Position numbers and translations under genes: made by a program
Shown here: piece after piece, positions 12,061 through 59,221 of the stretch
How positions within the stretch are numbered: position 1 is the stretch's first letter
How the letters are laid out: every line of letters begins with the position of its first letter
Assembly (NCBI RefSeq): GCF_030684315.1
Contig: NC_081387.1
Location: forward strand, 5,746,497 to 5,810,496
Direction: 5' to 3'
Source: Stegostoma tigrinum
Taxonomy: Eukaryota
DNA length: 64,000 bases
The notes under the pieces: generated by a model
Database searches by the model: none
What the model saw: only the letters and a program-made list of their open reading frames with translations
What the model was told of the DNA's origin: nothing

Positions 12061-15000
12061 AAAGAACTTTGGATTGAAAGTGGGAGGTAAGACCGGCAGA
12101 TTTCCAGAGGTAGGGGCTTGGAGCAGGAAGGAGCAAAGCGGGAGAAGCAGATAGCTCTGAGATTTAGTGCTTAGACCAGGTGCGGAGGGCTAAAGAGGCA
12201 TCTCAGGCTCAATGTTTGAAGCCAATTAGTTAACAGAACTCATCAACCTTCACATTGTATTTATCTTCAATGTCTTTAAAACCTGTTCCCAAGATAACTT
12301 CCAACTGGAAATACTGTCTGCTCTTTTGCTGCGTATTTATCAGCAAACTGGACACTGAATTTGAAGAAAACACATTTCCAAAAGGCTGATGTTTCAATGT
12401 TGGTATCAGCTGGAATATTCCAATGACTGTACTGGGTGTTGAGATCCCTGTAATTCTTGTAAGAAAACCAGTTCCCCCAGTGTCTTTATTCCAGAAACTA
12501 GCATCACCTGCAACACTTGTCATATAATTTTCTGACACCAGTATCTCAGTAATGGTGTATCTGCAACCCTTGGCTCCGGTGATATTCAGCACTGTGCTGT
12601 GAGTGCTCCCTGTTTGTACAATCACACAGGACACCACAGAAAGGGCACTGCACCCCACAGCCACATAACATTGTGTACAATTCACTGGATGGATCTGTAG
12701 GGAAAGAAGTGAGTTTTCCAGCAATATCCTTTCCCCAATCCTTAACCCTTTCAGTCAGATGATTTATTTTGATAAAACTTTCAATTTCTTGTTTAACGTT
12801 CTGAGAATTCTCTTTTCAGACTGAAAAGTAACAGGTCCCAGTGTCTCCTATGGAATCTGTATCTCATCTCCCAGATTGTCTTTAAATTTCTAGATGAAAT
12901 CACTGACTGACTTCTCATTGCTTGGGAGAGTTATATTCTTCAGAGCCTCTTTGACCTGTGTGAGTCAGCATAGGAGAGAAACTTGTTCATCATTTGTGGC
13001 TGCACAGTGTTGAAAAACTTGTTTTTTAAGCCAATCTTTCTCAAGTGACATGGTCTGTTTTATATATAGCTGAAGGGCCTGTACTGTGCTGTACTCGGCA
13101 ATATTCATCAAATTTTCCCCTCTTCTTCAAATACAGAATCAGAGCCACCTGGAAGTTTTACTGGTACAAGAACTTCCCTCCTTTGCAGTGGTACCTCATG
13201 TACTGAACAATTTCTAATCCCAATTTTTTATCAACAGCTTGGATGATGGCTGAGATCAGGCAATTTTCACAGAATAATTCTGCTCTCTGTTTGGTTTGAT
13301 CTTTCTCCTGACAGATGTCCTTAAAGCTTTGGCAATAACCTGCTTTCTCCTTTTCTATTGCTCCACAGGATTGTTTTTCTTTTGAAAGTTTTTGTGCAGA
13401 TTTCCATATTTTCTAACTGCAAATATACAGATACAAATTTTAAAATCCAACTTAAAATGTTAAGTAAAAGTAAATCTCTGATCACGGTTTTGCTGAATTT
13501 TCTCCTCTATGACTCTCAGGAGTTCTCTGCAATGATTAGAATCAGAATCCTGCTTCTAGTTCACTGTCTGATTCACAAACTGTTTGCACTACCTCGCTCA
13601 CGGATCTCACAGCTGCTGGGCTCTATGAATGTCATTTTTATTTAATCGTGAGCAATGCTGTTCAGAAATAAAGTTGCAATAATATTCAGGATAACAAGGT
13701 CTTGAGCTGGATGAACACAGCAGGCCAAGCAGAATCATAGGATCAGGAACGCTGACACTTCAGGCCTAGACCCTTCAATTGGCTCAGTATGATTGTAAGT
13801 GACTTGGAGCCTTTTATCCCTCAGTGCAAACACAGTTTTCTTGTTAAATCTCTTCCTAAGTTTTCTGCTTGTGGGCAAGTTCTGGCTCATTTTCACGTCT
13901 TTCATTATATTTGATGGTGGCGAATAATTAGATGTTGAAATTGTCTTCTGCCATAGGCTTTCTTCATTTCAGTTTGATGTGATTATTTTGTCGATTGCCT
14001 TAAATTAAGTATTGGTGCAAGCACCTGTGCCTTCCGATTGTTGATGCTTCTACCAAGTGGGAAGTTATCCCAATCTTCTCTTTCCAGTAAACAGGGCAAT
14101 TCTGACTTTTAATGCTGCTATGAAATCACTTCCTAGCCATCTATTCTACAAGCAAACTAAATCCAATCTATTTACTGGTCTTCACATTGTCTGTCTTTTG
14201 CATGAGTGGCTCAATATGATTGTAAGCGACTTGAGGTTTTCATCCTTCAGCGCAAACACCGTTTTCTCATTAAATCTCTTCTGGAGTTTTGTGCTTGTGG
14301 GCAAGTTCTGGCTCATTTTCATGTCTTTCATTATATTTGATGGTGGCGAATAATTAAATGTAGAAATTGTCTTCTGCCATATTTTCCCAAAAGCTTTCTC
14401 CAGTTGTGTTTTATTCATTTCCTCATTTTCTTGTCTGCACTTCTGTAGGAGTTCATTGACCTGTTCTTCAATCCGACTCTGATACTTATCCTTAATATCA
14501 TTCAGCTTCTGCAGAGCTCTCCTCCTCTGCACTGCCTAATCACACTTCCTGTCCATATACATTCCATGTTCAATGATCAGAGATTCAATGCTCTGGACAA
14601 AATCCTTCCTGCATTTTTCAGCAAGGTTTGAGTTTTTGCCAGTGGAATAATAGTTCTTCGATGTAGAAGAGCTTTTTCTTTCTGTACATTGAGGAATTCC
14701 ACCCGTTCTCTTTTCAAATGTTGAACTACATTTTCTGGATCCTGTTATGTATTAAAAATTCTGTTCTGTGCTCTTTCCAGGAAGAAATGTATCTCTTTCC
14801 TCAGTTCCCACTCCAGCTCAGTGTACATGACAGGAAATTCCTTGTACCAAACTGTTCTGGAAACTGAAGATGAAATTCTCATATTTCACTGCCTTCCACG
14901 GGGACTTAATCCAATCGATAAACGCAGAGATGGTCTACAGTCTCCTTTTATTTCTCTTCTCTTTCAGATTCTGAAAAATCATTTTCTTCAGCTCAAAGAC

Positions 15001-15231
15001 CCTGTGACTATAGCCACTATTGACAGCTGCCATGGGTGGATTCCCATGCCACAGCCCTGGGATGTTCCAGTTATTCTCCATTGCACCATACTCCAACACA
15101 TCCGAGAACTTGCTGAACTCTCGATCACATTTTTACATTTCAGTCGCTGCTTGTGTCATCACATCCAGATGTTCCGGCCGATGTCTGCAGCCTCTGATAT
15201 TCTGATCATGAGCAGCCACGTCACTCACATT

Positions 15232-15906
15232 CTAGTGAACAAAATAACAAACCGGCCTTTTCCCCACTTCTCTCATCTGTATAAATGCATGGACCACTAT
15301 CTGCAGCACATCCTGCATCTCAGTAGAGTTTTCCATGGCCATGTTTATCAATGCTATATCACTTAACCTGATCACCAGTGCGGCATGCTCATTGTCATGT
15401 TCATAGCTGTCGTCGATTTCTGACAGCCCTGGTGCTTTCAGCCCCTCAGTGTCGATCATCATGATGTACCCACAACCCAGCTCCATCAGCAGATTTCATG
15501 TGATCTTAATGTGTTGCATGTAGGCCCCACAGGTACATCGCCCACTGCTCACAGCAAACTGCAAACCAAACGTGGTGTTGAGATGTGTGGACTTGCCTGT
15601 GGTCTGTACTCCCAGCACCGTCAGCACAAACACACTGGTTTCACTGCCAGTCCTGTCTTCAACTGTGTCCGGTACATCAGTGATCCACTTTAAAGGCATG
15701 TTGGAAACATCTCCATCGATGAGTTCGAAAGGGAATCCATCCAACATCAGGTCAGCAGCAGTTTGGGGTAACATTTGTACAATGTTCTCTTCCTCATTAC
15801 CTTTGTCGTCCTTTATCAATGTTGCATAGATACTCCGATTTCTCGCATGAAGTTTTCGAGTCCAAGGGAGCTGGCAGTTATCTGTTGGTCTAATTTTTGT
15901 AAACAC
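15232..15906 (-). pseudogene. GVIN1: VLIG-type G domain of the GVIN pseudogene (frameshift between G1/G2 and G3)
   Basis: ORFs 15496-15906 and 15232-15486 are in different frames; P-loop GxxxxGKS and DTEG present. Confidence 0.93.
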
Positions 15907-16212
15907 TTTTTGGTTGTAGAATCTTTCTGCTTTGTTGACTGTCCCTGGGATTTCTCATACAGAGCTTCGTATTTTTTATGTAACCCAAAGAGACAGTCTC
16001 TTGATCTAGAATCCAACCCAAATTTTATCCAGTGCAGGAAATATTTCCTCTCATCCCTGCCTGTCAGGTCTGTAATGAATATTTTCACATCAACTGATAT
16101 ATCTTGTGCTCACTGTTGCATTTGAAGTTTCCTTTTCCTTTCTTCAAGGTCATTACAATATTTTTGTGTTGAACTCTCCTTTCCCTGCTTTGGGCAACAT
16201 TGTTCTTTTTCT

Positions 16213-16390
16213 AGAGATAATGGGAACTGCAGATGCTGGAGAATCCAAGATAACAAAGTGTGAAGCTGGACGAACACAGCAGGACAAGCTGATGTTTCGG
16301 GTGAAGGGTCTCGGCCTGAAACGTCAGCTTTTGTGCTCCTAAGATGCTGCTCAGCCTGCTGTGTTCATCCAGCTCCACACTTTGATATCT
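16213..16390. mobile_element. Fold-back Penelope-terminus insert within the GVIN exon
   Basis: Same family as 45310-45522; CATTGTTCTTTT duplicated at 16198-16209 and 16391-16402. Confidence 0.85.
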
Positions 16391-16989
16391 CATTGTTCTT
16401 TTGACGGGTTAGTTCCCAGGCTTTTTTCAATATGAGTCGCAGTATCTCAGTAAATTCTGCATTGTTCCTTTTGCCTTGTGATAATATTTGTTTCCGTTTA
16501 AACACTGAAGATGTAACAAATCTCCTCAAGTGTTCTTTAGTCTGATTGCTCACACTGCTCTCAGTGAGCACGATGTATGTACTCGCTGGAGACTGTGTGA
16601 GGGACTTCAGAATCTTGCTTAAATCACTGTTGATATTATCAATCCAAATAAAACCAGCTGAAGAGATGTTTGTCAGAAACTGAACCTGTGTGTGGGACTC
16701 TTTAATATCACTTTGAAGGTTTATACCACACTTGGCTCCATGAAAAGATTCAATTCCTCACTCTCACTGGGCAGGTACCATCTCAACTTGACAAGGCTAT
16801 CAGAAATCCTGCGAGAGAAATCACCACCATCGATATTGTAATGGATGAAGAAGTTGTGATGTTGCTGGGAGGAGCTGAGGACTTCATTTAGAATCACAGA
16901 TTTGCAAATGGTGCAGGAACCTATTTGGATGAAGGAAAAGATGGGAATGTTAGCAGTCACCATGTTTGTTTCCTTAAAACCTGCATAAT

Positions 16990-17988
16990 AGAACATAGAA
17001 CATAGAACAAAGAACAGTACAGCACAGAACAGGCCCCTCAGCCCACAATGTTGTGCCGACCATTGATCCTCATGTATGCACCCTCAAATTTCTGTGACCA
17101 TATACATGTCCAGCAGTCTCTTAAATGACCCCAATGACCTTGCTTCCACAACTGCTGCTGGCAACGCATTCCATGCTCTCACAACTCTCTGCGTAAAGAA
17201 CCTGCCTCTGACATCCCCTCTATACTTTCCACCAACCAGCTTAAAACTATGACCCCTCGTGCTAGCCATTTCTACCCTGGGAAATAGTCTCTGGCTATCA
17301 ACTCTATCTATGCCTCTCATTATCTTGTATACCTCAATTAGGTCCCCTCTCCTCCTCCTTTTCTCCAATGAAAAGAGACCGAGCTCAGTTAACCTCTCTT
17401 CATAAGATAAGCCCTCCAGTCCAGGCAGCATCCTGGTAAACCTCCTCTGAACCCTCTCCAAAGCATCCACATCTTTCCTATAATAGGGCGACCAGAACTG
17501 GACGCAGTATTCCAAGTGCGGTCTAACCAAAGTTTTATAGAGCTGCAACAAGATCTCACGACTCTTAAACTCAATCCCCCTGTTAATGAAAGCCAAAACA
17601 CCATATGCTTTCTTAACAACCCTGTCCACTTGGGTGGCCATTTTAAGGGATCTATGTATCTGCACACCAAGATCCCTCTGTTCCTCCACGCTGCCAAGAA
17701 TCCTATCCTTAATCCTGTACTCAGCTTTCAAATTCGACCTTCCAAAATGCATCACCTCGCATTTATCCAGGTTGAACTCCATCTGCCACCTCTCAGCCCA
17801 TCTCTGCATCCTGTCAATGTCCCGCTGCAGCCTACAACAGCCCTCTACACTGTCAACGACACCTCCGACCTTTGTGTCGTCTGCAAACTTGCTGACCCAT
17901 CCTTCAATTCCCTCGTCCAAGTCATTAATAAAAATTACAAACAGTAGAGACCCAAGGACAGAGCCCTGTGGAACTCCACTCACCACTG
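16990..17988 (-). mobile_element. Young 5'-truncated CR1 inserted in the GVIN exon
   Basis: Uninterrupted RT C-terminal ORF (SGVPQGSVLG, FINDL, FADDTK, to stop at 17084); (ctatgtt)n tail; ATAAT at 16985-16989 and 17989-17993. Confidence 0.95.
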
Positions 17989-18914
17989 ATAATGTTGGAG
18001 TGAGAGTGGGCGCTACTTCTTCATAATGGAGTGCAGGGCCCACAGTAGGAAGGTGCAGCCCTTGTTACCAGCCGGCAGTAATAGGTCAGGAACGGGTCAG
18101 TATACAGGAAAATTTCCTTTCTAAGTATCTGCCTACGGAATCTCTGCAACAATGATATCCAAGGAATGGTATAAATCTTCACAGCTTTCATCCAGAAACA
18201 GAAGATCCAAGCTATCTGATTCTGAATGATTTTGTATCTTTGTTGGTTTGTATTTTGAGCTTCTTGCCTGTGAATTGACAATCATTAAATTCCAGAGAAA
18301 ATATCCTGGAATATCCTGAGGGGAATTTGGTGATTTATTTTGAAGTGTTTCTGTATTTAGGTTGGGAATGTCGCTCAGAAACAGTTTCTTGCTTTGTAAT
18401 CCTAATTCTGTCAAGAATTCTGGAATATTGATTCCTGCATTAGATTTTCCAGTATTTACATTGGAATCATTGTTAGTAGGAATTGATTCATCTCTTTGGA
18501 CTTGTTCATTAGTGATCTTGTTTTCTTCCAGTGTGTTAAGTGATACTGCACTTTGTTGTGATTGTCTCTGAACAGGCTTTGCTCTGTTGGATTCAGTCAT
18601 CTTTAGTCTCACCTCAACATCCTGGCCTCCTAGCGGTGAAGAGTGAGATCTGCCTCTGGCTGTGCTGAAACTAATAAAGATTTTAAATTAAATCATTTCA
18701 GAGGCTTATTAATAATTAACATTATTAGGCCAGTGATTTAAACAGGATTGTAAAAAATTAGAATCACACTGGTTTGTTTTCCTTTCATCATACAGTCTGT
18801 GCCCTGTGCCAACTGTGGTCTGTGACTTCAGCTAACGAAGTCAATCTTCTTCTCAAAACTCCTTAGTGTCTCTCTGCCCAATGTTTTCCACACTGTTTTC
18901 TGTAATCATTGGTC

Positions 18915-19245
18915 CACATTCGTACCATCCACAAGATGCACTGTATATAATCACAAGTCTTCAAGGACAGCTCAAGACCACCACCAACTTGAACAACAAG
19001 AGCAGCAAACACATGGGAACACCACCACCTGCAAGCTATTCATCATACTGACTTGGAAATGAATCACTACTTCTTCCGTGTAGCTGGGTCAAAATCTTAG
19101 AAGTCCCTTCCTAGCAGGATTATGGGTGCATCTACAAACAAATAGACAGCAGTGGTTCAAGAAAGCAGTTCACCACCACCTTCTCAAGAGGAACTAAGAA
19201 GAGGCAACAAATGCTGCCTCTGCTTGCAAACCTACATGAATGAAT
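18915..19245 (+). mobile_element. L2/CR1-group LINE 3' end
   Basis: gcagtggttcaagaaagcagttcaccaccaccttctcaag tail shared with copies near 26000 and 34350. Confidence 0.75.
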
Positions 19246-23265: not shown

Positions 23266-23274
23266 GTAGAACTG

Positions 23275-23545
23275 GAAAACCTTTTATCTTTGGGACATGG
23301 TACCTCAGCAACATTGATGGCCTCCAGAACAGGGGGAGCCTGCCCATCTGCAAATGTCACTAGGATTTGTATGTTCTCTGCAATATCTTTGTCAAAAATG
23401 GAAAGAATTGAATCAAAGACATTTGTGTCTGGGTCAGATGAGCCATAGAGCCTTGAGCAACGAAACACACAGCATCGATCTGATCAACACCATCTGGGGA
23501 AGTGAAGAACTCTTGGATCTGATCAGTGAGCAATTTATATGCTTC
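23275..23545 (-). pseudogene. Fragment of a septin-type/AIG1-like GTPase of the fish immune-associated family
   Basis: LTDQIQEFFTSPDGVDQIDAVCFVAQGSMAHLTQTQ (frameshift) VFDSILSIFDKDIAENIQILVTFADGQAPPVLEAINVAEVPCPKD; cut off by CR1 (right) and Tx1 (left). Confidence 0.75.
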
Positions 23546-23559: not shown

Positions 23560-24720
23560 GTCAAATACAAGGGCACTCTAACATAAAGCATGCAGCATTC
23601 TCAGGAAGGTAAATGATCTCAGCACATAAATAGAGCTCATCTGTATGACCTATGTATTATTACAGAAACAATGTCTGTGCAGTAATCAGGACTGGGAATG
23701 CAATATTCAAGGATATTCACCATTCAGGAAGGAGAGACAAGATGGAAAAGAGGGTTCAGTTGTGCTGATTTTGAGGGATTGGAGCAGTACATTAGTCAGG
23801 GAGGATGTCTGATCTGAAGGACAATGTGTGGAATCTATTTTGGTGGATATAAAACAGCAAGTGGCAATAGATATTGGTTGGATTTACTTATATGCCACCA
23901 ATTGGAGGTGGTGGTGTGGGGCACAGCATTAATCAGGAGATGAGAGAGCCATGTAGCATGCAAAACACAATTATCATGGGTGAATTCAACTGCATTTAGA
24001 ACACTAAAACAACTGGGCACGAAAGATGTGGAGAACAGGATTTTGCAATGCATTTGGGCTGGATTTTCAGAGCGGCTTTTGGGTAACCAACTGGAGGACG
24101 TGTGTTAAATCGAATATTTAGGTGTGAAAAAGGATCAATTAACATACTACTTATAAAAAGACAGGACTGCAGAGGCCATGGTGAAAGAGAATTAATTCAG
24201 ATGCTTTTAAGTTCATTAAAAAGGTATTTGACAGGCTGTCTGTATTTAAAGTTGTCATGGCACCAGAACTGGATGAGACGTGTTCATTTTGGCAGGAAGA
24301 ACATGCGGAGATAATACAAAGGGTGAACTTGGAAGTGTGTAAAGAACAGAGGGCCCTGGGGTTTTCTGTGCATATATCATTAAAAGTATCAGGATTGGTG
24401 GAGAGAGTACTTAATAATGCTCAGGGCTTTGATAATAGGGACTTATAAAATGAAAGCATGGATTTGATATGGATTTTTTACAATACAGCAGTTAGAGCTC
24501 AATTTTGATTACTGAGTCCAGTTTTGGGCACCACACTTTAGGAAGGATTGGAAGGCAGTAAAGGGCAGAACAGGTTTATGAGAATTGTTTCACAGATGAG
24601 GATCTTCAATTACAAAGATAACCAGAAATATGAAACAGATGGAGAAACTGGGAGAATGGAATCTTCACAGGTAAGAAGATGAGAGGATGTATAGTGGAAA
24701 TCAGAGAGCATGGAGTGGAT
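23560..24720 (+). mobile_element. Degraded CR1 ORF2 (endonuclease, then 3' part)
   Basis: ITET / NIQGY / FRKERQDGKRG endonuclease motifs; later ccagttttgggcaccac. Confidence 0.75.
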
Positions 24721-26559: not shown

Positions 26560-28530
26560 GCAAGTGTGCAAAATAATCATCTTGTTCTTAAACAACCTAC
26601 TGGAGTGAGTCGTTACTGATAGAATGTTACATTATGTATGCAAATGAAGTTCATTCTGAATCAAAAATGTTAAATTTTAATAAAGGAAATGATGAAGGCA
26701 TGAGTGAGAAATGGTTGAAGTGAATTGGAAAAATACTGTATAAGGCATGACTGTACAAAGGCAATGGCTAGTTTTTAAAAGGTTTGTTGCATGGCTTACA
26801 GCAATCATCTATTCCTTCATGCTACAAAACCACAAAAAAGGTCAGTGAACTGTGGCAATCCAGAAGTTCTGGATTGCCTAGGATTAAAAAGGAAAGATCC
26901 AAAAGGTTGCTCGTAATAGCAGTAATTCTAAGGATAGGGAGGTTTATAGAATGCATTGACAGAGGACCGGGCGACTGTTTAATTATTAATTCAATCTGGC
27001 AAATAAAATATTTAAGAGTCTGTGAAAGCTTGTATAGATATGTAAAACGAAAACACACGATCAAAATGAAGTTGAATGTGATAGATAATTTATATTGGGG
27101 AACAAAGAAATGGCAGAGAAGTTTGTGTATATTTTCGATGAGAAATATACCAGATGTCTCCTGAAATAAGAGACCCAGTAATGACTGACAATGAGAAGTT
27201 GAAGAGAACTAACATTGCGAAGAAGATTTATACTAGAGAGCATAAGGTCATACTGGAGATATTAATGCAGCTTAAAAATGGATAAATCCCAAGAACCTTG
27301 TCGTCTTCATCCCAACGTGTTTGAAGTAATAAAATGTGAGGCTGGATGAACACAGCAGGCCAAGCAGCATCTCAGGAGCACAAAAGCTGACGTTTCGGGC
27401 CTAGACCCTTCATCAGAGAGGGGGATGGGGGGAGGGAACTGGAATAAATAGGGAGAGAGGGGGAGGTGGACCGAAGATGGAGAGTAAAGAAGATAGGTGG
27501 AGAGAGTGTAGGTGGGGAGGTAGGGAGGGGATAGGTCAGTCCAGGGAAGACGGACAGGTCAAGGAGGTGGGATGAGGTTAGTAGGTAGCGGGGGGTGCGG
27601 CTTGGGGTGGGAGGAAGGGATGGGTGAGAGGAAGAACCGGTTAGGGAGGCAGAGACAGGTTGGACTGGTTTTGGGATGCAGTGGGTGGGGGGGAAGAGCT
27701 GGGCTGGTTGTGTGGTGCAGTGGGGGGAGGGGACGAACTGGGCTGGTTGAGGGATGCAGTAGGGGAAGGGGAGATTTTGAAACTGGTGAAGTCCACATTG
27801 ATACCATATGGCTGCAGGGTTCCCAGGCGGAATATGAGTTGCTGTTCCTGCAACCTTCGGGTGGCATCATTGTGGCAGTGCAGGAGGCCCATGATGGACA
27901 TGTCATCAAGAGAATGGGAGGGGGAGTGGAAATGGTTTGCGACTGGGAGGTGCAGTTGTTTTTTGCAGTAGGTGGCTATAGACATAACTGGTATGTTCTT
28001 ATTATCTTTTCTTGCTGGTTGGAAAGTAGTGAATGTCACTCCATTACTTAAGAAGACTGAGAGAGAAAACAAGGAATTACAGAAGTGTTAGGCTCACATT
28101 AGTAATAGAAAAACTGCTAGAATATATTGTGAAAGATGAGATAAATACATACCTGGGTGTTGAAAATTGATTTGGACCTGGTCAGCATGGGTTTACAAAA
28201 GGAAAATTATCTGACAAAATTGTTGAAGTTTCCTTAAAACAGAATTTTAAAAGGAGCCATTGATGTAGTATACTTAATTTTCAAAATACGTTTGAAAAAC
28301 TTGCCTTAGAAGGCTGGTTAGAAAGATTAAAGCACATGGGATAGGAGATAACACACTGGCATTGATTAATGGTTGGTGAATAGACAGGAACCAGTGTCAG
28401 TATAAACGGTCATTCTCATATTGGTAGGTTGTGCTTCAAGGAATAGTACAAAGATCAGTACTTGGGTTCCAGCTGTTCACAATATATGTCAAGGATTTGG
28501 AGGTGAGGACCGAATCTAATGTTTCCAATT
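26560..28530 (+). mobile_element. Degraded CR1 ORF2, split by a Penelope insertion
   Basis: DKSQEP, QHGF (ggtcagcatgggtttac), VLGFQLFTIYVKDL. Confidence 0.7.
27327..27965 (-). mobile_element. Young 5'-truncated Penelope-like element (3' end)
   Basis: QLHLPVANHFHSPSHSLDDMSIMGLLHC..QEQQLIFRLGTLQP; nearly identical to 48140-48780. Confidence 0.9.
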
Positions 28531-33710: not shown

Positions 33711-34869
33711 AACACTCTTTTTCTTCTCTAATTCCTATCTGTTTATAATAACAGTCTTTGACTGTTCATTGGTTTCCTTCTAAGACAATCCATTTATCCC
33801 TGGGATCAGCTCAGTGAATTTTTTCTGGATTGCCTCGAATGCCATCAGATTGGGGGCCAAAACTGTTGACAATGTTTCAACGTAGTCTAACTAGAACTTG
33901 TACAATTTTAGCAAAACCTTCACATTTTTACACTCCATTTCCTTTGAAATAAATCCCCTGACCTTTTACTCCTTCATGTTGCTGCTTAAAACCTACCACC
34001 TTAACTGCATGCGCTTTTGCAGGCTAGTGTTAAATATTTCCCAATAACATTCCTGTGTTTTGAGACCATTCATGACATTAAAATAGCTAGATAACTGGAA
34101 TCTGCTGTTGTTTTTCTGACTTTCCTCCTTGGGTTTATAGTCTTATACCATCAAAAAATACTCTCCTTAATCAACAGCAACACCCTTCCTCCTTTTCTTT
34201 ATTTAATATATTTCCAGGAACTCATCGCAGGTTCTTAGACAGCAGCTTCAAAACCTGTATATTCCACCTTCCATCCATGGCAGGGTTAAAGTTCATGAAC
34301 TTCATCCTGAACCCTACTGTGGATGTATCCATGCCACATTTATGGCAGCAGATCCAGAAGACAGCTCACCACTTCTGAAAGGCAACTATCGATGGAGAAT
34401 AAATGTCAACCTTACAAGCAATACTTACATCACAGATGTAAATAAAAGCCCCCCCCAATCTTGGGTATTCACTAACCAATCACAATCCTCTTTCAGCTGG
34501 AGATAACACGCTGTAAGCTGGAGGAATACAGCAGGCCAGGCAGCATCAGAGGAACAGGAAAGCTGACGTTTCGGGTCGGGACCCTTCTCTGAAGAAGATG
34601 CTGCCTGGCCTGCTGTGTTCCACTAGCCCCACATTGTGTTATCTCAGACTGCAGCATCAGTGGTTCTTACTACCTCTTTCAACCTGATTATGTCTGCGAC
34701 AGCCACAACATTGAATTTCAACACTGCAATTCACCTGTAATTGACCAGTCCTAATTACCAAACCTCATTCATTAATTTCCCTCCACAGTGACTCTGATTT
34801 AGGTGTTAAGAAGTCAATTGGCAAACTCCTCTTAGGTTACATTTACAGAGTTTCATTCCAGTACCTTAC

Positions 34870-34977
34870 CCCACTGGGAGAGCTTAGCCTCTGCCAGGCT
34901 GCTGAGTTCAATTTGACAGGCGTGTTGATCCTCATCTCCAGCACTGATCTCAATCTCTTTCTGGATCTGATGTGTTC
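34870..34977 (-). pseudogene. MHC class I alpha3 exon, 3' half only
   Basis: THQIQKEIEISAGDEDQHACQIELSSLAEAKLSQW followed by a GTAAG donor (34869-34865); paralogous to 47665-47760. Confidence 0.85.
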
Positions 34978-34979
34978 AC

Positions 34980-37060: not shown

Positions 37061-38709
37061 TTAATTTATTTGTACTTTGAATATTTCTGCAGCACCCCCT
37101 TACCTATCCTTACAGATCTTAAAGCTGCTCTTGATTCCAGTGGTAAGGAGGACTCAAGCTGTTTTTGTTAATGTTTTGCTTCATCAAATTTAGGAACTGA
37201 GTGGAACCAAGGCCAATATCTATAATAATTTTATCTGGTAAGCCATGAACAGCTAACTTAGATCAGAACTCATCCAATATTTGTTCAGTATTAGTATACT
37301 TTTACTTTGTTCTACTTTAAGTTGCTATAATGACTATTAAGAACTTGTTGTTTCCTCATCACACTAAGAACTGTATGACCTCTTTAAAGTGGTCAACTTG
37401 GTTGTATTGCATCAAGGTTATAATGAGGCTTCTGGCTGCTTTTTTCTACTGTTTTGGTGCAGAGTATGTCTGTGTGCCATTCATTCTGGATTGCTGTCTA
37501 TACCAGGCCAATAAGCAAATAGCCATTGATTTTGCCACCAGCATTAATCCTATCATTTCCCAGCTATTTCAGGTCTGCTAAAGGGTCACTGAAATTGAAA
37601 CATTAACTCTGCTTTCTCTCCACTGAAGCTGCCAGACCTGCTGAATTTTTCCTGCACTCTCTGATTTTGTTTCAGGTTTCCGGCATCCACAGCACTTTGT
37701 TTTATTATGATGACTGGATCTTTCCTTTCCCACTACAAGTTCCTGTCTAGTCCTGAGCAGATGTCCTGGACCATGGTAATACATGGACAATGGAGCCATT
37801 TGGGATCTCAGCTTCAGAGCATGGTGTCAATCACCTTCATGAGATTGTATTGCACTATATTCCTTCCTATTCCCTGTTGCTGAATGGCTTCCTGGACCAT
37901 GATGCAACAGTCACATAGCTCATCTCACTGCAAACCCCACTCTCATCCAAACAAGTTGAAGGAACCTTAAACCTGAGGACAATAATAAAGACTGAGGGTA
38001 CTGACCCCTAACCTACCTCACTCATAGCCTTGCTGTCCTATCCCTTAACACTGGCCAAATCCAATGCTGAGAAGTGTGACCCCTCATAGGATCCATGAGC
38101 TGGTTTTTTTCCCCGAAAAGGGATGGCACTTTATATCCAGCAGACATGGCATCAGGTCCCAAAAATCCACCCATTCTTCACAATACAGGAGTCCTGTACA
38201 TAGGACACTCCTGTTGAATGGAACATAGACATCTGGCAGTGTCCAAACTCTATCAGTATGGTTTGTGCGTGTTTGTGTGCGTGTGTGTGTGCGTGTGTGT
38301 CCCAATGAGGCCCGGTCCAATCTATCACATGTCCCCAAAAACCTCACTGACCGCAGGCTGGAAGCACTCAATGGACTCTCAGCACTTGCAGCATTTTGCT
38401 GAGAGTTCCAGATTTACACCCCCATTTCCGTGAAGAAGAGCTTTCTGGTTTCACTCCAAAATGACCTCACTCTAATTGATGATGGTTCTCTCGTATTCCG
38501 GATTCCAACACCAAATATTGTATACTTCCATTAATGGGATGTTTTGAGACTTTACTGGAGAATGAAATCGGGTGAGGGCCAAACCAGCGTTTCAACCAAT
38601 CCCATCAATTTCAAATGAATGGGTTTTGTTTAAATTGTTCCCAATCAGCACAAACTGGGAAAGGATCCAGGAACAGAGACAATTCTAATATTATTCCAAT
38701 GTGTTTCAG

Positions 38710-39642
38710 AAATCCCAGAAAACAGTGTGGTAACATTCCCATTCTGTAATTGTAATTGGATTAGTCACTGCAGTAACTACAATATTTGGAATAATCATCT
38801 GGAAAAGACCCTGCAGAGGTAAAATTCAGAGAGAGAGGAATGTAAAACTGATGGGACCAGTTGAGTGTGGGGAATCTCCAGTACTAGGACCACAGGATAC
38901 TGTGTTGAATGGAACTAATTGAATTCCCACATAGAGATACACGCATATAAATATATCTTGTTCCCTATCTGATCTTTCAGGCCGGGTCTAATATTGTTCA
39001 TTGTGGTCACCACATCCTTACTGACTGAAAATCGATGGAATGGGAGAGATCTTCAGAGGCTCTGTAAAGTGTAAGCATGGAGGTGAGTGTGGGATTGAGG
39101 ATTTCTTTCACAATCATCATTCCCTCACACTCATTGTGTTCTCACTCTCTAAGAATGGATTATTCCCCATTCTAATGGACATTTATTTCTGCAGATTCAC
39201 CAAGTGGGACCAAGCAACAACTCACAGTAAGTGCCTGAGGGGAATGTTGGGAATGAATCAGAAAAGTTTGAAAAAGATATAGCAATATGTTCACCTGGGA
39301 GTTTCTCAGGATGACACATGTCCACTCCCCTCATCTCCAATCCCTCAACCCCCAATCTCTTATCATACACATCCCGATACCCCTACTTCCTCCCTTTCCA
39401 AAGTGCCCTCATTAATCCCTCACTCTCCATTCCTTATCCCCCACTCCTTTACCTTAAAAGCCCTCAATCCCCACTCATTCACCATCCACTTCTGCACTGT
39501 TCTGTTAATGTTGACAAAGATTCTTTCTCATTCGCTGGATACAAGATACAATGTCACACTGTAATTTTATATTTTGCTCCATTTCACACATTCTGTTTTA
39601 ATTTTCTCAGATTCTGATGTCTCCGTTCAAGGTCATTCATGA
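38710..39642 (+). pseudogene. MHC class I-like TM exon (38710-38818) and cytoplasmic exons (39195-39226, 39611-39642)
   Basis: AG/GT-bounded exon encoding SVIVIGLVTAVTTIFGIIIWKRPCR (frameshifted); 32-nt exon; last exon SDVSVQGHS*; inverted homology with 43650-45130. Confidence 0.75.
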
Positions 39643-41619
39643 TCCTGTAAGAGATATTTTAGCTTTCCTCCACTGAGATATTTTTAAGAATTTCACTCCC
39701 CTCCTGAGCCTGCCTCTCCCTCCCAGACACTGTTAAAACCTGTCAGACTAATTTCACTCCCCTCCACACATTGAAGTGATACCCTTTTGTCTGTCCATTT
39801 CTTATCTTGTGGGTTTCCTCGGTGCTATTGCAGCACTTTCCTGGAGTGTCACTGAGGGATAGTGGGATTCTCCTGCTCCAGGGTGAACATGTCACTGCAG
39901 ATACTCAGATTTACAACTCTTTGTTCACACCCAGTTCTTTGAGGATTGAGATTGCTTTTTCTTGGGTTTGTGTTTCCACAGATTGCTCAGTGGATCCATA
40001 GTTTTGGATCTTGATTCTTCAGGTTGGACCTTCTCAAGTCATGCTTTCATCGCATCTCAGAAATGTGAGCAGTGTCACCATCAGAGGGATCTTCATGGAT
40101 GGTTTCTCCCTCACTTTCTCATCTTCACTGGCCTCAGTTGGTCAATGATTTACTGGAAATGAAGCAATTGTCCTGAAGTGACTCAGAGGCATATTTCATA
40201 TTATAAGAAATAGGTCAATTTTGCACTTTGTGTCAACGATTTTAGTGATCATGTACATATATGTATAAATTTTGCAACTTTCTTTTTTATGTTGACAAAA
40301 ATCTCTATTTATTTGCTACTATTTTCTATTTATTCAATTTTAAGCTGAACAGATGTGTTTTGAAATCAAAGTAACCATTGTGAATTCTTGTTCGATGAAT
40401 ACATTTTCTAACTGGGGCTTATTTACATAGGCAAATAACTGTTACTGCTTGTCATGAGCGTTTAACTACAAATACCAATAATTGTGGTTGGTAATTAATA
40501 AATAATTGTTTCGGGTTGATTTTGAGCATATTCTTCTTCAATTAATTCACAAGAAAGGGTTAATTCATTCAGTCAGTAGCTTGTGGCTCTTGGGATCAGC
40601 AGTTGTTGAGCTTCAATTCAATGTCAACTGGGGGAGTTAAGACCATTCAACTCCCCAACACCTTTCCCCAAACCAACCAGGAAGCACAAAGTGATGTTTA
40701 TATGTTGTGTGTTTAGAGTTCGGTGGTTTTTAATATCTTGGAGTGTTCATTCCCTGGGGGTGGAGTGTCCTTTCTGAAGGATCTGAATGAGTGTGAACAG
40801 AGGGCCAGGGAGTTGCTGGGAATCAGAAATACATCACTAACTGGTGACCAAGCCAGGATTGGATTGAGGAAAGGCCAGGGTCACCAGCTGAATGTTTCAA
40901 CCGGGTTTGAGCACACGGGCCTCTGGGATGTGACAGATGAAGAGGAATCTTATTGCCAATGTTTTCCTCTGACAGGTGTTGTCTTTAGACACACCGGCTG
41001 GAGGTGGTGGGGGGCAGTTAGTTGTGAGGTGGTTAGGGTCAGCAGTCAAGGGAGTTCAACGGAGACCTGGAGCAGTCACTGAGCCCCAGGTCACAGAGGG
41101 AAGTGAGACGGTAACTGAACTAGAGGGGGAAGGGGAGTGACATCCAGATGAACAGGAAGGTGAGCACCTGGGGTGAGAGGGCAGGTGATGTGGCACTCTC
41201 ACTCCTGTCCTCATGCTGCACCTTCAGGGTTAAAATGTGGGGAGTGTCCTGAGCCTGGGATGATAATCAGATCACCAGCTCTCTGTCTCCAATCCCCTCT
41301 TGGTCTGAGGGAAGCACAAAGGACAACTATGAAGATGATGGTGTGGGGTTACTAGGAGAGTGTGTGATAAACTAGTCTGATCTGTCGAGGACCGAGGAAC
41401 CTCCAACAGTTCAAGGACTCACTCCGTGATCTTCAGTGACACAGGGACCACCTCAGGCCCATGGTGACACTGTCCTGGAAGAGATGTTCATTCCTCACCT
41501 GAGGAATGGCCTGGTGGCTCAACATGACAAGCACCTTGACTCTCTGCACTTGAGCAGAGATGAGAGAGTTTCATACAAGGGCTTCTCAACAGCTGGGCCT
41601 TTGGAGAAAAAACATTCCG

Positions 41620-43652: not shown

Positions 43653-43705
43653 TCAAAATGTCACTGATTGAATCATGGAGGAAGCTGGAACTGAGACTTC
43701 AGAAG
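43653..43705 (-). pseudogene. Class I last cytoplasmic exon
   Basis: ttttctcag acceptor; SEVSVPASSMIQSVTF*; paralogous to SDVSVQGHS* at 39611. Confidence 0.6.
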
Positions 43706-44456
43706 CTGAGAAAATAAAAACAGATTGTAAGTACTGTAATAGAACATAAAAACAGAGAGTGTGAGATATTCCCTATCATTGCCTGGGCCCAGGATTCAAT
43801 CAACTTCCCAACCTTAACTAAACAGACTCCCACAGCACAGAGGGAGTGGAGAGTGAGGGTCCCAAGTGAACCTCACAGTATTATCCCCAGGAGAATGTGA
43901 TTCTACACCTTCCAATTCCGTCTAATCATTCCCAACACTGTTCCCTCTTTTTTGGTTCTTATTTAGTATTTAACCCACTGCCACATTTCTTCCAGGCATG
44001 CCCACCTTGAAGAAGTTCTGCTCCTCACTCCGACGGGATTTACGTTCCAATCTCTCTTCTTGCCCACAAACTTTAATTTTACTCTCACTCCTGGTGTTTG
44101 ACCAGATATTTGCCAAAACTCATTTCCACAGCCAAATCACATTCTTCAGTGACTGCCTCTGGGTCAGACTCACCCGACGTGGATTCCATCTCAAGTTTCA
44201 TCCCTCATGTTTTGAATCCTTCCAGGATCACAGATATCTCCATGATGTTCAAGGTTCCATGGACAGCTGCTCTCACCACATCCTGAGATCCACACTCAGT
44301 GCCATGCGGCGTCATCACATGTATACTCTTAACCTGTTCTGAGGAAGGGCCACCGGACCTGAAACATTAACTCTGTTTTGTCCACCACAGATGCTGCCAG
44401 ACCTGCTGAGCTTTTCCAGCAACTTTGTCTTTGTTCCTGTTCCCTCAGTTACTTAC

Positions 44457-44489
44457 TGTGAGCTGTTGTGTCGGTCCCATTTGGTGAAT
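44457..44489 (-). pseudogene. Class I 33-nt cytoplasmic exon
   Basis: DSPNGTDTTAH; GTAAGT donor; acceptor reads CTG instead of CAG. Confidence 0.6.
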
Positions 44490-44815
44490 CAGCAGAAAAA
44501 AAATAAATGTCCATTAGAATAATCGATTCTCTGAGAGTGAGAACACAACAAGTGTGAGGGAATGGAGACTGGTATTCAGTCAGTGAGGATGTGTGCGTGC
44601 GTGGTGGATTTAATGATCAATATTAGACCTGGTCTGGGCCAATCACACAAAGGGAAAATCAGACAGGGAGCAAGGTGTGTTTATATATGTGTATATGTGT
44701 GTGGGAATTCAATCAGTTCCATTCAGCACAGTGCCCTGTACTTCCAATACTGGACGTTCCCCCGCACACTCACTCTGTCGCCATAGTTATACATTAGCCT
44801 CTCCCTGTTTCTTAA

Positions 44816-44935
44816 CTATCCATGGACTTTTCCAAATGATTATTCTGATTATCCCAAAAATAACAGCCAGTAGAATGATTACTGATGAAATGACACTTCT
44901 AAGATGGGAGTGTCCTCAGTTGTTTTCCAATATTT
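44816..44935 (-). pseudogene. Class I transmembrane exon
   Basis: tgtttcag acceptor; EILENN*GHSHLRSVISSVIILLAVIFGIIRIIIWKSPWI; donor reads TTAAG. Confidence 0.75.
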
Positions 44936-47513: not shown

Positions 47514-47664
47514 NNNNNNNNNNNNNNNNNNNNNNNNNNNNNNNNNNNNNNNNNNNNNNNNNNNNNNNNNNNNNNNNNNNNNNNNNNNNNNNNNNNNNNN
47601 NNNNNNNNNNNNNNNNNNNNNNNNNNNNNNNNNNNNNNNNNNNNNNNNNNNNNNNNNNNNNNNN
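47514..47664. other. Assembly gap (N run)
   Basis: Direct reading; it covers the end of the alpha3 exon. Confidence 1.
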
Positions 47665-47934
47665 TAGAACTTAGGCTGTGCCAGGCTGCTGTGTTCAATT
47701 TGACAGGAATATTGATCCTCATCTCCAACACTGATTTCAATAATTTTATGGATCTGATGAGTGTCATCATGGTCGTTTGAACCCCTGAGGATTGTATCTC
47801 AGACATGAACTCTCCATTCCTTAGCCAGGTCACCTCGATGCCTACAGGATAAAATCCAGTGTCCAGGCAGGAGAGAGTGAGCGGCTTGTCCTGACGATTG
47901 GGCTCACTCCTGGAGATGAACACTTCAGGCTGAA
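47665..47934 (-). pseudogene. MHC class I alpha3 (Ig C1-set) exon
   Basis: VQPEVFISR..LTLSCLDTGFYPVGIEVTWLRNG..SSGVQ, then a -1 frameshift, then HDDTHQIHKIIEISVGDEDQYSCQIEHSSL. Confidence 0.93.
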
Positions 47935-48136
47935 CTGTGATGGGAAAGGGTGAGAACACAAACAATAGACAGCCTCTGAATGGAATGGGACAGCAGTTAC
48001 ATAGATCAGTGAGGTTAGAGCAGAACATGGGATCAAAAACTTTGTAAAGACTGCATTGTTTGTATCATTATATCTCTATAAACTGTGGAGTGTAAGGAGA
48101 AAGAACAGTTTTTAAAAACAGGAACTTTCCAGGACA

Positions 48137-50194
48137 ATGATAATAAAATGTGAGGCTGGATGAACACAGCAGGCCAAGCAGCATCTCAGGAGCACAAAAG
48201 CTGACGTTTCGGGCCTAGACCCTTCATCAGAGAGGGGGATGGGGAGAGGGAACTGGAATAAATAGGGAGAGAGGGTGAGGCAGACCGAAGATGGAGAGTA
48301 AAGAAGATAGGTGGAGAGAGTGTAGGTGGGGACGTAGGGAGGGGATAGGTCAGTCCAGGGAAGACGGACAGGTAAAGGAGGTGGGATGAGGTTAGTAGGT
48401 AGATGGGGGTGCGGCTTGGGGTGGGAAGAAGGGATGGGTGAGAGGAAGAACAGGTTAGGGAGGCAGAGACAGGCTGGGCTGGTTTTGGGATGCAGTGGGG
48501 CTAGGGGAAGAGCTGGGCTGGTTGTGTAGTGCAGTGGGGGGAGGGGGCGAACTGGGCTGGTTTTGGGATGCAGTGGGGGAAGGGGAGATTTTGAAGCTGG
48601 TGAAGTACACATTGATACCATTGGGCTGCAGGGTTCCCAAGCGGAATATGAGTTGCTGTTCCTGCAACCTTCGGGTGGCATCATTGTGGCAGTGCAGGAG
48701 GCCCATGATGGACATGTCATCTAAAGAATGGGACGAGGAGTTGGAATGGTCCGCGACTGGCAGGTGCAGTTGTTTATTGCGAACCGAGCGGAGGATGTTC
48801 TGCGAAGTGGTCCCCAAGCCTCCGCTTGGTTTCCCCAATGTAGAGGAAGCCACACCGGGTACAATGGATACAGTATACTACATTAGCAGATGTGTAGGTG
48901 AAACTCTGCTTGATACGGAAAGTCATCTTGGGGCCTGGGATAGGGGTGAGGGAGGAGGTGTGGGGGCAAGTGTAGCATTTCCTGCGGTTGCAAGGGAAGG
49001 TGCCGGGTGTGGTGGGGTTGGAGGGCAGTGTGGAGCGAACAAGGGAGTCATGGAGAGAGTGGTCTTTCTGGAAAGCAGACAAGGGTGGAGATGGAAAAAT
49101 GTCTTGCGTGGGGGGGTCGGATTGTAGATGGCGGAAGTATCGGAGGATGATGCGTTGTATCCGAAAGTTGGTGGGGTGGTGTGTGAGGACGAGGGGATCC
49201 TCTTTGGGCGGTTGTGGCGGGGGCGGGGTGTGAGGGATGTGTTGCAGGAGACGCGGTCAAGGGCGTTCTCGACCACTGTGGGGGGGAAAGTTGCGGTCCT
49301 TGAAGAACTTGGACATCTGGGATGTGCGGGAGTGGAATGTCTTATCGTGGGAGCAGATGCGGCGGAGGCGGAGGAATTGGGAATAGGGGATGGAATTTTT
49401 GCAGGAGGGTGGGTGGGAGCAGGTGTATTCTAGGTAGCTGTGGGAGTCGGTGGGCTTGAAATGGACATCAGTTACAAGCTGGTTGCCTGAGATGGAGACT
49501 GAGAGGTCCAGGAAGGTGAGGGATGTGCTGGAGATGGCCCAGGTGAACTGAAGGTTGGGGTGGAAGGTGTTGGTGAAGTGGATGAACTGTTCGAGCTCCT
49601 CTGGGGAGCAAGAGGCGGCGCCGATACAGTCATCAATGTACCAGAGGAAGAGGTGGGGTTTGGGGCCTGTGTAGGTGCGGAAGAGGGACTGTTCCACGTA
49701 ACCTACAAAGAGGCAGGCAGAGCTGGGGCCCATGCGGGTGCCCATGGCCACCCCCTTAGTCTGTAGAAAGTGGGAGGAGTCAAAAGAGAAGTTGTTGAGG
49801 GTGAGGACGAGTTCAGCTAGGCGGATGAGAGTGTCGGTGGAGGGGGACTGGTCGGGCCTGCGGGACAGGAAGAAGCGGAGGGCCTTGAGGCCATCTCCAT
49901 GCGGAATGCAGGTGTACAGGGACTGGACGTCCATGGTGAAAATGAGGTGTTGGGGGCCAGGGAATTGGAAGTCCTGGAGGAGGTGGAGGGCGTGGGTGGT
50001 GTCACGGACGTAGGTGGGGAGTTCCTGGACCAAAGGGGAGAAAATGGAGTCCAGATAGGTGGAGATGAGTTCGGTGGGGCAGGAGCAGGCTGAGACGATG
50101 GGTCGACCCGGGCAGGCAGGTTTGTGGATTTTGGGAAGGAGATAGAAACGGGCCGTGCGGGGTTGGGGAACAATGAGGTCGGAGGCTGTGGGTG
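48137..50194 (-). mobile_element. Penelope-like retroelement (RT + GIY-YIG endonuclease), 5'-truncated
   Basis: FYLLPKIHK..GRPIVS, MDVQSLYT, GVAMGT, YIDD; NVVYCIHCTRCGFLYIGETKR; 16-bp TSD GGAACTTTCCAGGACA at 48121-48136 and 50195-50210. Confidence 0.95.
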
Positions 50195-50871
50195 GGAACT
50201 TTCCAGGACAGTTGCATAATGTCACAAGGAAATTGATAGCTGCATGTTTCTGCAATGTGCAGATGATCAGGAATCGAAGAATCATTTACCAGTTAAGCTG
50301 ATCTGTTTTTAATTACCTTAGCAGGTCAGAAGTTACGCAGACACAGCTATAGAGAGAGACACACATGTAGAAGAATGGTTTGATGCTCTCCCCAGCTGAA
50401 GCTACCTGTTTTCAACAGTCCAAAAACAGCTCATTTTAAACTTGAAGAAAACCAGTTACCTTTCCCACTGTGTTTGCTGTGGGCTATGACTTTTGAAGTG
50501 AGAAATCAGGGACATTTACGAAGTGAATGAGTCACTCTGTACTTCTAACAATCTATTGGTAACATCCAGAGAAATACAACTGAACTCCAGTGTCTGGCTC
50601 ATTGACGTAGAATGATATCAACATCGGAATCAGAAAGCAAAACCTACTGAACTGACTTTCCAGATATTCTCTACCTCCTTCAAAGATCTATTTTTCCTAT
50701 TTGTCTAGCTATGTGTGTTTCAAGGATTAATGGGTTAGAGTTTTAGTTACTTATATACCAATAGTCAGTAATAGCCTGATTACTTGTGATAAGTAATAAT
50801 TCTAGGTTTGCCCAGAAACATGATCCATGCTTTCCATAAGAGACAGTAAGAGCTGCTGTTGCTGGAGTCAG

Positions 50872-52162: not shown

Positions 52163-52337
52163 CAGCTCCACACCGTGTTATCCTGTGCTTTCAAGAAACC
52201 CTGTTCTGAAAGTCCGAGAAGTTGAGGCACTGTGTGTACCTTAAAAAGAAACTGTATTATTTGGTATGATTCCAAGAATAGTAGGGCTCGGTCTATAGTG
52301 CACTATCCCAGAGGGTTGTAAAGAACAAAATAAATAC

Positions 52338-52628
52338 CATTCCTTTTGAAGTATTTCTTTCCAGCTTGCAAGTATCTCATTAATTGCTGAACACATGCAT
52401 CTTCTAGATGTTCTTCCCATAATGTGTTACAGGATCTAGCAGAATCCAATTTTTCCTTTACCTTCCCTGCATTGTTACTGGATGTGACCCATCTCATTCT
52501 GTCTGGCTCGAGGCTGATGTAGTCCTTTCCATCAAATCCGAATCGAATTGATCTCTTCATGGAACCTTTCCTCACTGTATTGTTTTCATTCACGTCCACA
52601 ATCCTAACCCATTGAAAAATGTGAATTC
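52338..52628 (-). pseudogene. MHC class I alpha2 exon (open, 291 nt, intact splice sites)
   Basis: GIHIFQWVRIVDV..RFGFDGKDYISLEPDRMRWV..LEDACVQQLMRYLQAGK; acag acceptor and gtattt donor. Confidence 0.92.
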
Positions 52629-57420: not shown

Positions 57421-58249
57421 TTTTTCAATGTTACTTATCCCATTCCCATTCTTTGTAACTGTGGCTCTGTTTAATCTTGGCCCTTGATTTCTCTGCCTAT
57501 TACTTTTCTGCCTTGTTTTCTTGCCCTTATTTCTCCTTCCCTTGTCACCCTGCATGGGATCCTATTGCTGGGAGGTGTGCTGAGTAGAGTGACTCAGGGG
57601 TCAGTGCTGGAGGCTGGGCTGTGTGGAGTGGCCCAGGGGTCAGTGCTGGGGGAATGGACTGAGTTGAGTGTTCCTGGTAGATTAGTCAGAGAATTAATTG
57701 TCTTGGTTGACTCAAGATAGTTTCAACAGGAATATGGATCCTTCCTCTAAACTCACACACACACACACAGAGTCATTTTAATATCATGTTAATTGTTTAT
57801 GAATGAGGGACTGCCACAGTACAGGCCCATCGGCACAACATCAAGAGCTGAAGGGCCTGTACTGTGCTGTAATGTTCTATGTTCTCTGTTCTATATACTT
57901 GATCCTCTCCACTTCTTTATCTCGCTGAGATATTTACTAAAAAGATTCCTATTCTCTTTTCACACAGCCTCCTGGGTCCACATTGTCCGTTCTGTAATAT
58001 CGAACAAGTTCGAGCCCACTCCATATATGTACATGTGAATTCAAACACAGTGAGGTGATTGGAGTTCTCCAGCAAGCTGCCCGTTCCTGGATGGTTGCAA
58101 TCATCTCACCAGTCTCTCACTCACTAAATCACAAACCTATCTCCTGAACTTCATCATTTTAGCAAACTTTCTAAAAAAGGAGAAGGAACAGAATAACACT
58201 CCCTGTTTCCATGTTCATGGTGTCTCATACAATGTACATCACAGTCTGC

Positions 58250-58960
58250 CATATAACTATGGCCTGCTAGCTGTCTCACATTTGGTACTCAGCAGAGTTA
58301 ATGGATAATTCCACATCACTTCTCACGATACTATGCTTTTCTCTTGAATAGGGGTTTTGACACGATGGTGGAGAGATGTCTGATTCAGAAGCAATTGGTA
58401 AACAGCTTTGAGATCCCTCAGTGTTATTTAAATAACAAAAGAAACATGTGTGTGTGGAGTCAGGCTCACAGAGACCCAGGGCTTTGGTTTTGCTTTCAGT
58501 TAGGGCTTGAAGTTGGCTGTTGAAGCTCATAGTTACAACTCACTCTCTCTGCTGCAGCAAAAGGCTTGAGTTCTCTCTTTGCTGCTAGGCTGCTTCTTTT
58601 GGTGATTTTCCTGGACTGGAGAGGAGATAGCACATGAGGAAAATCTATATTGCGGAATTTGATTTTGCCAAGGCTTTATTTACAGAATGCTGCCATATTG
58701 GAACAGTTGATGATTACTCATTAAATAGCATATTGGTTTGCTCAGTATTTCAACAGTGTTAAAGTCATGCCAATTATTCCTTTTTGTTGTTTGTGTTTTA
58801 ACTGTGTTGTATGAATAAACTGTGTTTTGCTTAAACCCTATCAGTGGTCCAATCAAATCATGTGACTTTAAACAAATCATTGACTTTAAACAAAATAAAA
58901 AAGTTACGGTCTAGGCTATCTCCTTGATATAGTTTGAGAGGCTTGGTTTGGTTCATAGCA
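58250..58960 (+). mobile_element. Possible solo LTR
   Basis: Non-coding, internal AATAAA near 58815, ends ..gttcatagCA; boundaries uncertain. Confidence 0.4.
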
Positions 58961-58971
58961 CATTGACCTTC

Positions 58972-59221
58972 CTAATTGTCTGGTTTGTACTTTTTATCAT
59001 TGTACTCATAAGCTGTTTTGCACTTTATGATAGTGTCTTCATGAGCCTTGCGATACATTTCCAGTATTCCACAACAAAAGAGTCTGCCATGAAGTGCAGT
59101 TTAGGGATGGTCTGACTGATATTAGTGTCAAAATAATCAACCTGAAATCCATTTACCATTACAATACTAGTAACCTCAGGCATATCATGAATGCTAGAAA
59201 CTGATGAAAATGTGTCAGTGA
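58972..59221 (-). pseudogene. MHC class I alpha1 exon
   Basis: ttttacag acceptor; DMPEVTSIVMVNGFQVDYFDTN..PKLHFM..VEYWK..; in-frame TAA at 59025-59027; ends in the conserved NQT glycosylation sequon. Confidence 0.85.

Follow-up and report, generated by a model that had tools for sequence, protein, structure and literature searches.

Why do non-classical class I genes belonging to the major histocompatibility complex (MHC) and genes of immune GTPases lie side by side in a shark genome, and has this neighborhood left a mark on the genes themselves? Sharks provide the main view of the early MHC, and we know of no function for their multicopy class Ib genes. We addressed the question with a stretch of 64,000 nucleotides from Stegostoma tigrinum (contig NC_081387.1, forward-strand positions 5,746,497 to 5,810,496; hereafter the window), in which a preliminary description, drawn from the letters alone, had seen a decayed cluster of very large GTPase (GVIN), septin-like GTPase and class I genes at 12230..59221. 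We consider it quite probable that the window holds a dead copy of a shark block in which a stonustoxin-like G-domain gene and a GVIN gene accompany class Ib genes, likely situated where the MHC class Ib cluster borders on beta-2-microglobulin (B2M), and that the start of the GVIN exon has been taken up as a class Ib tail. All genes in the window are broken; the interest therefore lies with their intact relatives.

The GVIN assignment had been made from GVIN/URGCP motifs. Indeed, five minus-strand frames between 15235 and 17083 match the Pfam families URGCP or URGCP_GTPase (E 2e-15 to 2e-46), and P0290, a predicted protein of the epaulette shark (Hemiscyllium), is 69% identical to the window in a frameshift-aware alignment that covers 18668 down to 12239. 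The pseudogene is colinear over 1669 residues, with a URGCP domain followed by a VLIG-type G domain in a single-exon frame of ~1650 residues. In this alignment there are 19 stops and 12 frameshift rows, besides 8 insertions that are not multiples of three; close to repeats, some of these events are artefacts of the aligner. The copy lacks the open frame and the full set of G motifs expected of a working enzyme, G1 being altered and G3 (DTEG) kept. Together with an inserted fragment of a long interspersed nuclear element (LINE), presumably of the CR1 type, and with the stops (in α1 and the transmembrane [TM] exon), the frameshift (in α3) and the lost splice sites of class I gene A, these lesions bear out the decay that had been claimed.

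A splice acceptor in phase 1 marks the opening of the GVIN frame, ~16 codons ahead of the methionine used in P0039, a protein of Chiloscyllium punctatum, and a second in-frame AG lies six bases beyond the acceptor AG. The ~95 codons that follow the acceptor, here referred to as the leader, were recognized in the window by tblastn with the leaders of P0290 (E 2e-12) and of the Heterodontus protein P0302 (E 2e-11). In a tree of 38 rows, obtained by a quick search without bootstrap and with P0123, P0131, P0146 and P0148 (rays) and most non-shark matches excluded, the window copy fell into a shark-only clade of 18 rows (support of 100 in the Shimodaira-Hasegawa-like approximate likelihood-ratio test [SH-aLRT]), nearest to P0039 and P0290. 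Eleven of the 17 other members are encoded on a class Ib record, three on a 74-Mb Heterodontus record and two on unplaced scaffolds, one being without a record; three other shark GVINs fell outside the clade, two of them on other records. A comparison of P0039 with PDB sequences gave no match.

It is the sharing of this leader with the tail of a class I molecule, not remarked on in the preliminary description, that we regard as the part worth following. Long class Ib tails align with the first ~95 GVIN residues past the acceptor, at 55% identity over 94 amino acids in the comparison with P0302 (E 2e-21). Thirty-six class I proteins were tried, of which five had no scorable tail and 31 were scored, two proteins without a TM segment having been cut too early. 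Against the P0302 leader, five of the 31 tails reached z scores of 14–36, a level attained by none of 300 shuffles, while the other 26 remained at z ≤3.0. The five proteins come from Scyliorhinus canicula, S. torazame, Mustelus, white shark and Chiloscyllium plagiosum, and form a single clade (support 99). Pairwise, four of them are 83–92% identical in α1–α2, as compared to 54–76% among 11 other class Ib proteins; the long-tailed gene is thus a concrete target, conserved among fast-changing paralogues. P0308 and P0314 are further long-tailed proteins. In α1–α2, P0308 is 79–87% identical to the long-tailed group; in the tail, it shares 90% of residues with the leader of the Heterodontus GVIN P0042 but 51–59% with the tails of its orthologues. 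The tail would probably serve as an unstructured linker or docking segment. To our knowledge, and in the literature searched, no class I molecule with a tail common to an immune GTPase is known.

The adjacency extends beyond this assembly, in support of the linkage that the preliminary description had inferred. The class I and GVIN homologues that come closest are encoded on one common chromosome record in six of the nine shark species with class I matches (Scyliorhinus canicula, S. torazame, Mustelus asterias, Cetorhinus maximus, Chiloscyllium punctatum and Hemiscyllium ocellatum), and the G-domain family shares the class I record in five of the nine, as well as the GVIN record in Heterodontus. 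In the part of the catshark gene table consulted (PMC10751288 supplement), the G-domain genes LOC119975566/567 are located at 39.48 and 39.59 Mb amid MHC-Ib-marked genes, with B2M at 41.36 Mb and BRD2 at 41.46 Mb. The accessions of these two genes, XP_038671282 and 283, are succeeded by 284 (a class I protein), 290 (a GVIN) and 292 (a G domain plus GVIN). Judging from accession order and gene size, XP_038671290 and 292 would correspond to LOC119975573 (6.2 kb, 40.58 Mb) and 575 (40.72–40.78 Mb), which would lie just past a same-strand MHC-Ib gene and repeat the window order of class I, G domain and GVIN. Neighboring accessions are also seen for a G domain (406599) and a URGCP protein (406601) in C. 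punctatum, in Hemiscyllium (706692, 706697), and for GVIN (422950) and class I (422958) in Cetorhinus, accession order being a proxy for position only.

In the available excerpts of other gene tables, white shark si:ch73-170d6.2 is found at 79.19 Mb, between B2M (78.31 Mb) and the MHC-Ib genes (from 79.63 Mb), and on sawfish (ray) chr34, at 12.82–13.17 Mb, BRD2 and B2M have G-domain and stonustoxin-like genes right next to them. The MHC position of the G-domain family therefore likely predates the shark-ray split. No gene named GVIN is present on sawfish chr34, and reedfish GVIN clusters lie at least 70 Mb from brd2/psmb8; a linkage ancestral to jawed vertebrates is rejected by these two gene tables. 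To judge from the sawfish, reedfish and GVIN-clade data, the G-domain link seems to span the elasmobranchs and the GVIN link to be specific to sharks. For the window, the MHC location raised in the preliminary description is likely in view of relatives whose class Ib and G-domain genes lie near B2M and BRD2 (catshark) or B2M (white shark). Co-duplication, which had also been proposed, is supported for class Ib and G-domain genes, interleaved as they are in catshark; for GVIN with class Ib it is suggested, no more.

The class I exons of the window had been called non-classical. Compared by eye with the query sets published in PMC10751288, their α2 and α3 sequences agree far better with nurse-shark Gcirratum_UCA than with UAA, UBA or UDA, in keeping with that call. 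The nearest proteins to gene A in the tree are P0002/P0003 of Chiloscyllium punctatum (support 98), to which its α2 is 71–72% identical. All but one of the 37 α2 matches are named shark proteins, the remaining one having no name, and none is from a ray; the best matches across the length of both the class I genes and GVIN are bamboo-shark proteins. UEA is reported, in the 2021 work of Almeida and colleagues, to be a multigene class Ib lineage that is restricted to sharks and linked to the MHC. In the sections consulted, Verissimo et al. (2023; PMC10751288) give the name UEA to a multicopy class Ib lineage adjoining B2M, within an elasmobranch MHC-Ib cluster beside B2M and BRD2 in which UDA is single-copy. 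We have taken the query label UCA to stand for the UEA lineage, on our own reading of the PMC10751288 text together with what is reported from the 2021 work.

Both the class Ib cluster and its place in the MHC have been published, and the linkage of GVIN and G-domain genes to it is modestly new, being in itself a modest addition that is legible in public annotations. The main text of PMC10751288, as far as available, contains neither "GTPase" nor "GVIN", its shark tables leave the interleaved genes unnamed, and the portions consulted do not mention a GVIN-like class Ib tail; likewise, GTPase, GVIN and URGCP have no occurrences in the available main text of PMC7677710. Neither the class Ib-GVIN linkage nor the shared exon was found in the literature searched, most subscription papers being out of reach.

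The second GTPase of the window had been described as a septin/AIG1-like fragment. A G-domain remnant is indeed present, and at 74–89% identity to shark AIG1/septin-like proteins (E to 1e-36) it belongs to their family. Septin identity, however, is rejected, as intact relatives cover only ~6–76 of the 280 positions of the Pfam Septin model and score similarly weakly with AIG1. Instead, these relatives are stonustoxin-like MACPF-FN3-GTPase proteins: long si:ch73-170d6.2-like members carry a stonustoxin-type MACPF domain, a helical, a thioredoxin-like and an FN3 domain, followed by a weakly septin/AIG1-like G domain, and P0279 and P0302 show SNTX and FN3 plus weak Septin/AIG1 matches in Pfam. 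The longest frame of the remnant alone matched no Pfam family, and the remnant lacks both the P-loop and the DTPG motif. Searching the window by tblastn with P0279, P0162 and P0207 yielded this G-domain scrap only, with no MACPF, helical, thioredoxin-like or FN3 part upstream. P0184, compared with PDB sequences at E 0.1, had no match. Nearby, a single-copy stretch at 24154-24445 has overlapping open frames of 87–89 codons on both strands, without a Pfam match.

How might GVIN sequence have reached a class I gene? Class I exons end in phase 1, as those in the window do, and a class Ib TM or α3 exon can therefore join the phase-1 GVIN acceptor in frame. We propose that a GVIN exon came to lie next to the class Ib cluster in an early shark, founding the shark-only GVIN clade, and that tandem duplication and loss would then have created and killed copies. 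The long-standing adjacency likely allowed a class Ib gene, its TM or α3 exon spliced onto the GVIN acceptor, to acquire the opening part of the GVIN exon, and one such gene may have fixed a shortened copy of that exon as its tail. Tail and adjacent GVIN leaders still appear to swap sequence, a continuing exchange at which the comparisons faintly hint.

Whole-gene joins are also predicted by single RefSeq models. In P0290 (1932 aa), part of α1, α2, α3 and TM are joined to a complete GVIN at the acceptor, in a model without a leader and without the first half of α1. In P0302 (XP_067881250/251, 2943 aa), an unverified gene model, a stonustoxin-like gene is continued by a whole GVIN, P0051 places a G domain ahead of GVIN (in a model flagged LOW QUALITY), and P0279 (catshark XP_038671282) carries a class Ib leader on a stonustoxin-like gene, again as an unverified model. 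The model of P0042 (XP_067865890/891) has an apparent signal peptide and a TM segment ahead of the shared acceptor, then GVIN; we note it as a candidate membrane-tethered GVIN. Whatever their status as proteins, the joined models do show same-orientation adjacency.

These joins invite a further-reaching explanation, namely that the block stems from a working fusion gene with a class Ib ectodomain, an anchor and a whole GVIN, of which the long-tailed gene would be a truncated descendant and the window a decayed copy. P0290 has this layout and belongs to the pair of proteins nearest to the window GVIN, the TM exon of gene B finds its best matches in P0014 and P0290, and the residues from the acceptor to the first methionine are conserved across the window, Hemiscyllium, Heterodontus and the tails. 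Moreover, the tails end at different points in different species, and GVINs are seen to take on sensor modules, domains N-terminal to GVIN among the 120 matches listed comprising, as counted by eye, ~40 CARD, two pyrin and one Ig. However, P0290 is a single, 5'-incomplete model, the best 150 representatives (149 compared) included no second class I-GVIN protein, and every one of the several transcript models of P0039 starts at the internal methionine. We therefore hold such an origin to be unlikely. It is conceivable, if improbable, that sharks possess a membrane receptor with class Ib outside and a whole GVIN inside, the GVIN exon acting as a plug-in effector for class Ib, stonustoxin-like and small membrane-anchor genes and the window being a dead copy of that fusion locus; if whole fusions were true, antigen display and cell-autonomous defence would be combined in one protein.

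At the other extreme, the genes could be passive neighbors in a repeat-rich region of fast turnover, all joins, including the long tail, being prediction merges or inconsequential read-through. Merged models are frequent, as illustrated by the double class I proteins P0001 and P0280 and by the P0279 leader, the flagged P0051 and the incomplete P0290, and the reedfish and sawfish data speak against an ancient linkage. Yet five named species from three orders carry the tail on members of a single orthologue group, two of these species having several isoforms, and the tails of P0308 and the catshark protein end in identical residues. The same gene having the same tail end across species, independent annotation errors are implausible, and we consider this explanation unlikely. 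A scaffold mis-join at ~24–34 kb would remove the adjacency in the window altogether, and is hinted at by the interval without a bridging contig, by gene B pieces on opposite strands and by the scaffold gap further along. Nevertheless, contigs from two samples agree with the single-copy window pieces across 18–33 kb, GVIN 5' end included, with 0–1 differences; eight pieces have single-copy counterparts at ~92–94% identity in a second species, which shows their presence, not their order; and other sharks have the same three families as neighbors. A mis-join is thus highly improbable. The lesions at the GVIN 5' end are identical in the contigs of the two samples and therefore real, sequencing errors being ruled out.

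Several points weigh against the block with a captured tail that we favor. Linkage was scored as a common chromosome record of the encoding genes, recognized by the length of that record, and the kinship of the species means that the six cases are not six independent events. No GVIN of white shark or Heptranchias is among the 120 matches listed, the GVIN pieces of Chiloscyllium plagiosum are on unplaced contigs, and the catshark GVIN positions given above are deduced from accession order and gene size. No contig was found to bridge 24–34 kb. All tails are predictions of annotation models; against 120 GVINs at E 0.01, the tail matches only three, all in the shark clade; and the tail tree is short (95 columns, support 81–92), both trees coming from quick searches without bootstrap. 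The first capture may have run from GVIN to class I or in the opposite direction. In the window itself, genes A and B carry short tail exons, neither of them GVIN-leader-like, gene A stands outside the long-tailed class Ib clade, and the TM exon of gene B points away from GVIN.

The features of the window are collected in Table 1. On the minus strand, class I gene A (59221 to ~43660) is followed by half an α3 exon, the G-domain scrap and the GVIN exon; the plus strand bears the gene B exons and the decayed leader exon. The claim of at least two class I genes is sustained by gene A, gene B and the lone α3 half, which amount to two or three genes within 12230..59221. Gene A has the class I exon order of α1, α2, α3, TM and two tail exons, a leader in the same orientation missing. 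The lone α3 half is 86% identical to the gene A α3 exon at the DNA level; with plus-strand gene B lying near it by a retroelement (34859-39643), either a local inversion or the remnants of two genes may be present. The leader exon faces away from gene A and probably marks where a further class Ib gene begins on the right, unless it is a piece that has been inverted. That only repeats separate the genes, as had been stated, holds in so far as little coding sequence was found (Pfam matches among 100 more open reading frames of the window: RVT_1 three, C1-set one, none 96), but single-copy non-coding stretches do occur between them. A young reverse-transcriptase element with a 342-codon open frame occupies 48141-50285 in the α2–α3 intron of gene A, and a 640-base copy of it, 94% identical, is found at 27327-27966. 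Within the GVIN exon, 176 bases are duplicated (13780-13955 and 14207-14381, 90% identical), and a perfect 78-base tandem repeat of 2.1 copies lies at the window end (63777-63936).

Table 1. Features of the Stegostoma tigrinum window, in window coordinates
Feature	Position	Strand	Basis
GVIN (very large GTPase) coding exon, pseudogene	12230..18670	-	Pfam, tblastn, alignment to P0290, motifs
LINE 3' fragment (1 kb) inserted in GVIN exon, reverse-transcriptase frame open	16979..17994	-	Pfam RVT_1, alignment
GVIN leader, ~95 codons, homologous to long class Ib tail; one stop, one frameshift	18388..18672 (including acceptor)	-	tblastn, alignment
Phase-1 splice acceptor (AG) opening GVIN frame	18672-18671	-	sequence
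AIG1/septin-like G-domain remnant, stonustoxin-like (si:ch73-170d6.2-like) family; 87 codons in two frames, frameshifted	23280..23536	-	tblastn with 14 relatives, Pfam of intact relatives
Class Ib α3 exon, 3' half, cut off beside retroelement	34859..34975	-	tblastn E 3e-15
Remains of gene B: frameshifted TM exon 38710-38818, with tail exons ~39195-39226 and 39611-39643	38710..39643	+	
TM exon of gene A, with a stop, 44935-44817; short tail exons of the ordinary kind, 44489-44457 and from 43705	43660..44935	-	
Assembly gap, adjoins gene A α3 exon	47514-47664		
Gene A α3 exon, frameshifted, continues into gap 47514-47664	47665..47934	-	Pfam C1-set, tblastn
Gene A α2 exon, open frame, without first cysteine of usual α2 disulfide	52334..52628	-	Pfam MHC_I E 1e-14
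Gene A α1 exon, one stop, donor site lost	58967..59221	-	tblastn E 6e-30, sequence
Decayed class Ib leader exon, beyond 12230..59221	62907..62959	+	11/12 residues as in P0032 leader; 6-7 in 8 shuffles

Set beside known systems, the window belongs by sequence to the same lineage as the published elasmobranch MHC-Ib cluster (PMC10751288, as far as consulted), shares its multicopy character with pseudogenes and, going by its relatives, would lie in the same place. From the stonustoxin-like MACPF-FN3-GTPase genes it has the G domain in common, but only 87 codons are retained, with no MACPF, FN3 or P-loop found. According to the accessible part of a recent preprint, human GVIN1 coats cytosolic bacteria after interferon-gamma (bioRxiv 10.1101/2025.03.24.645074); by analogy, its action suggests intracellular defence as the theme of the cluster, in which direction the shark-only GVIN clade and the pore-former-like GTPase family also point. 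With GVIN1, VLIG and URGCP the window shares the URGCP and URGCP_GTPase domains, the one large coding exon and the G1/G3 motifs. Unlike human GVIN1, the window copy is dead, and its shark clade is without the CARD found on many other GVINs, having instead a leader common to a class Ib tail.

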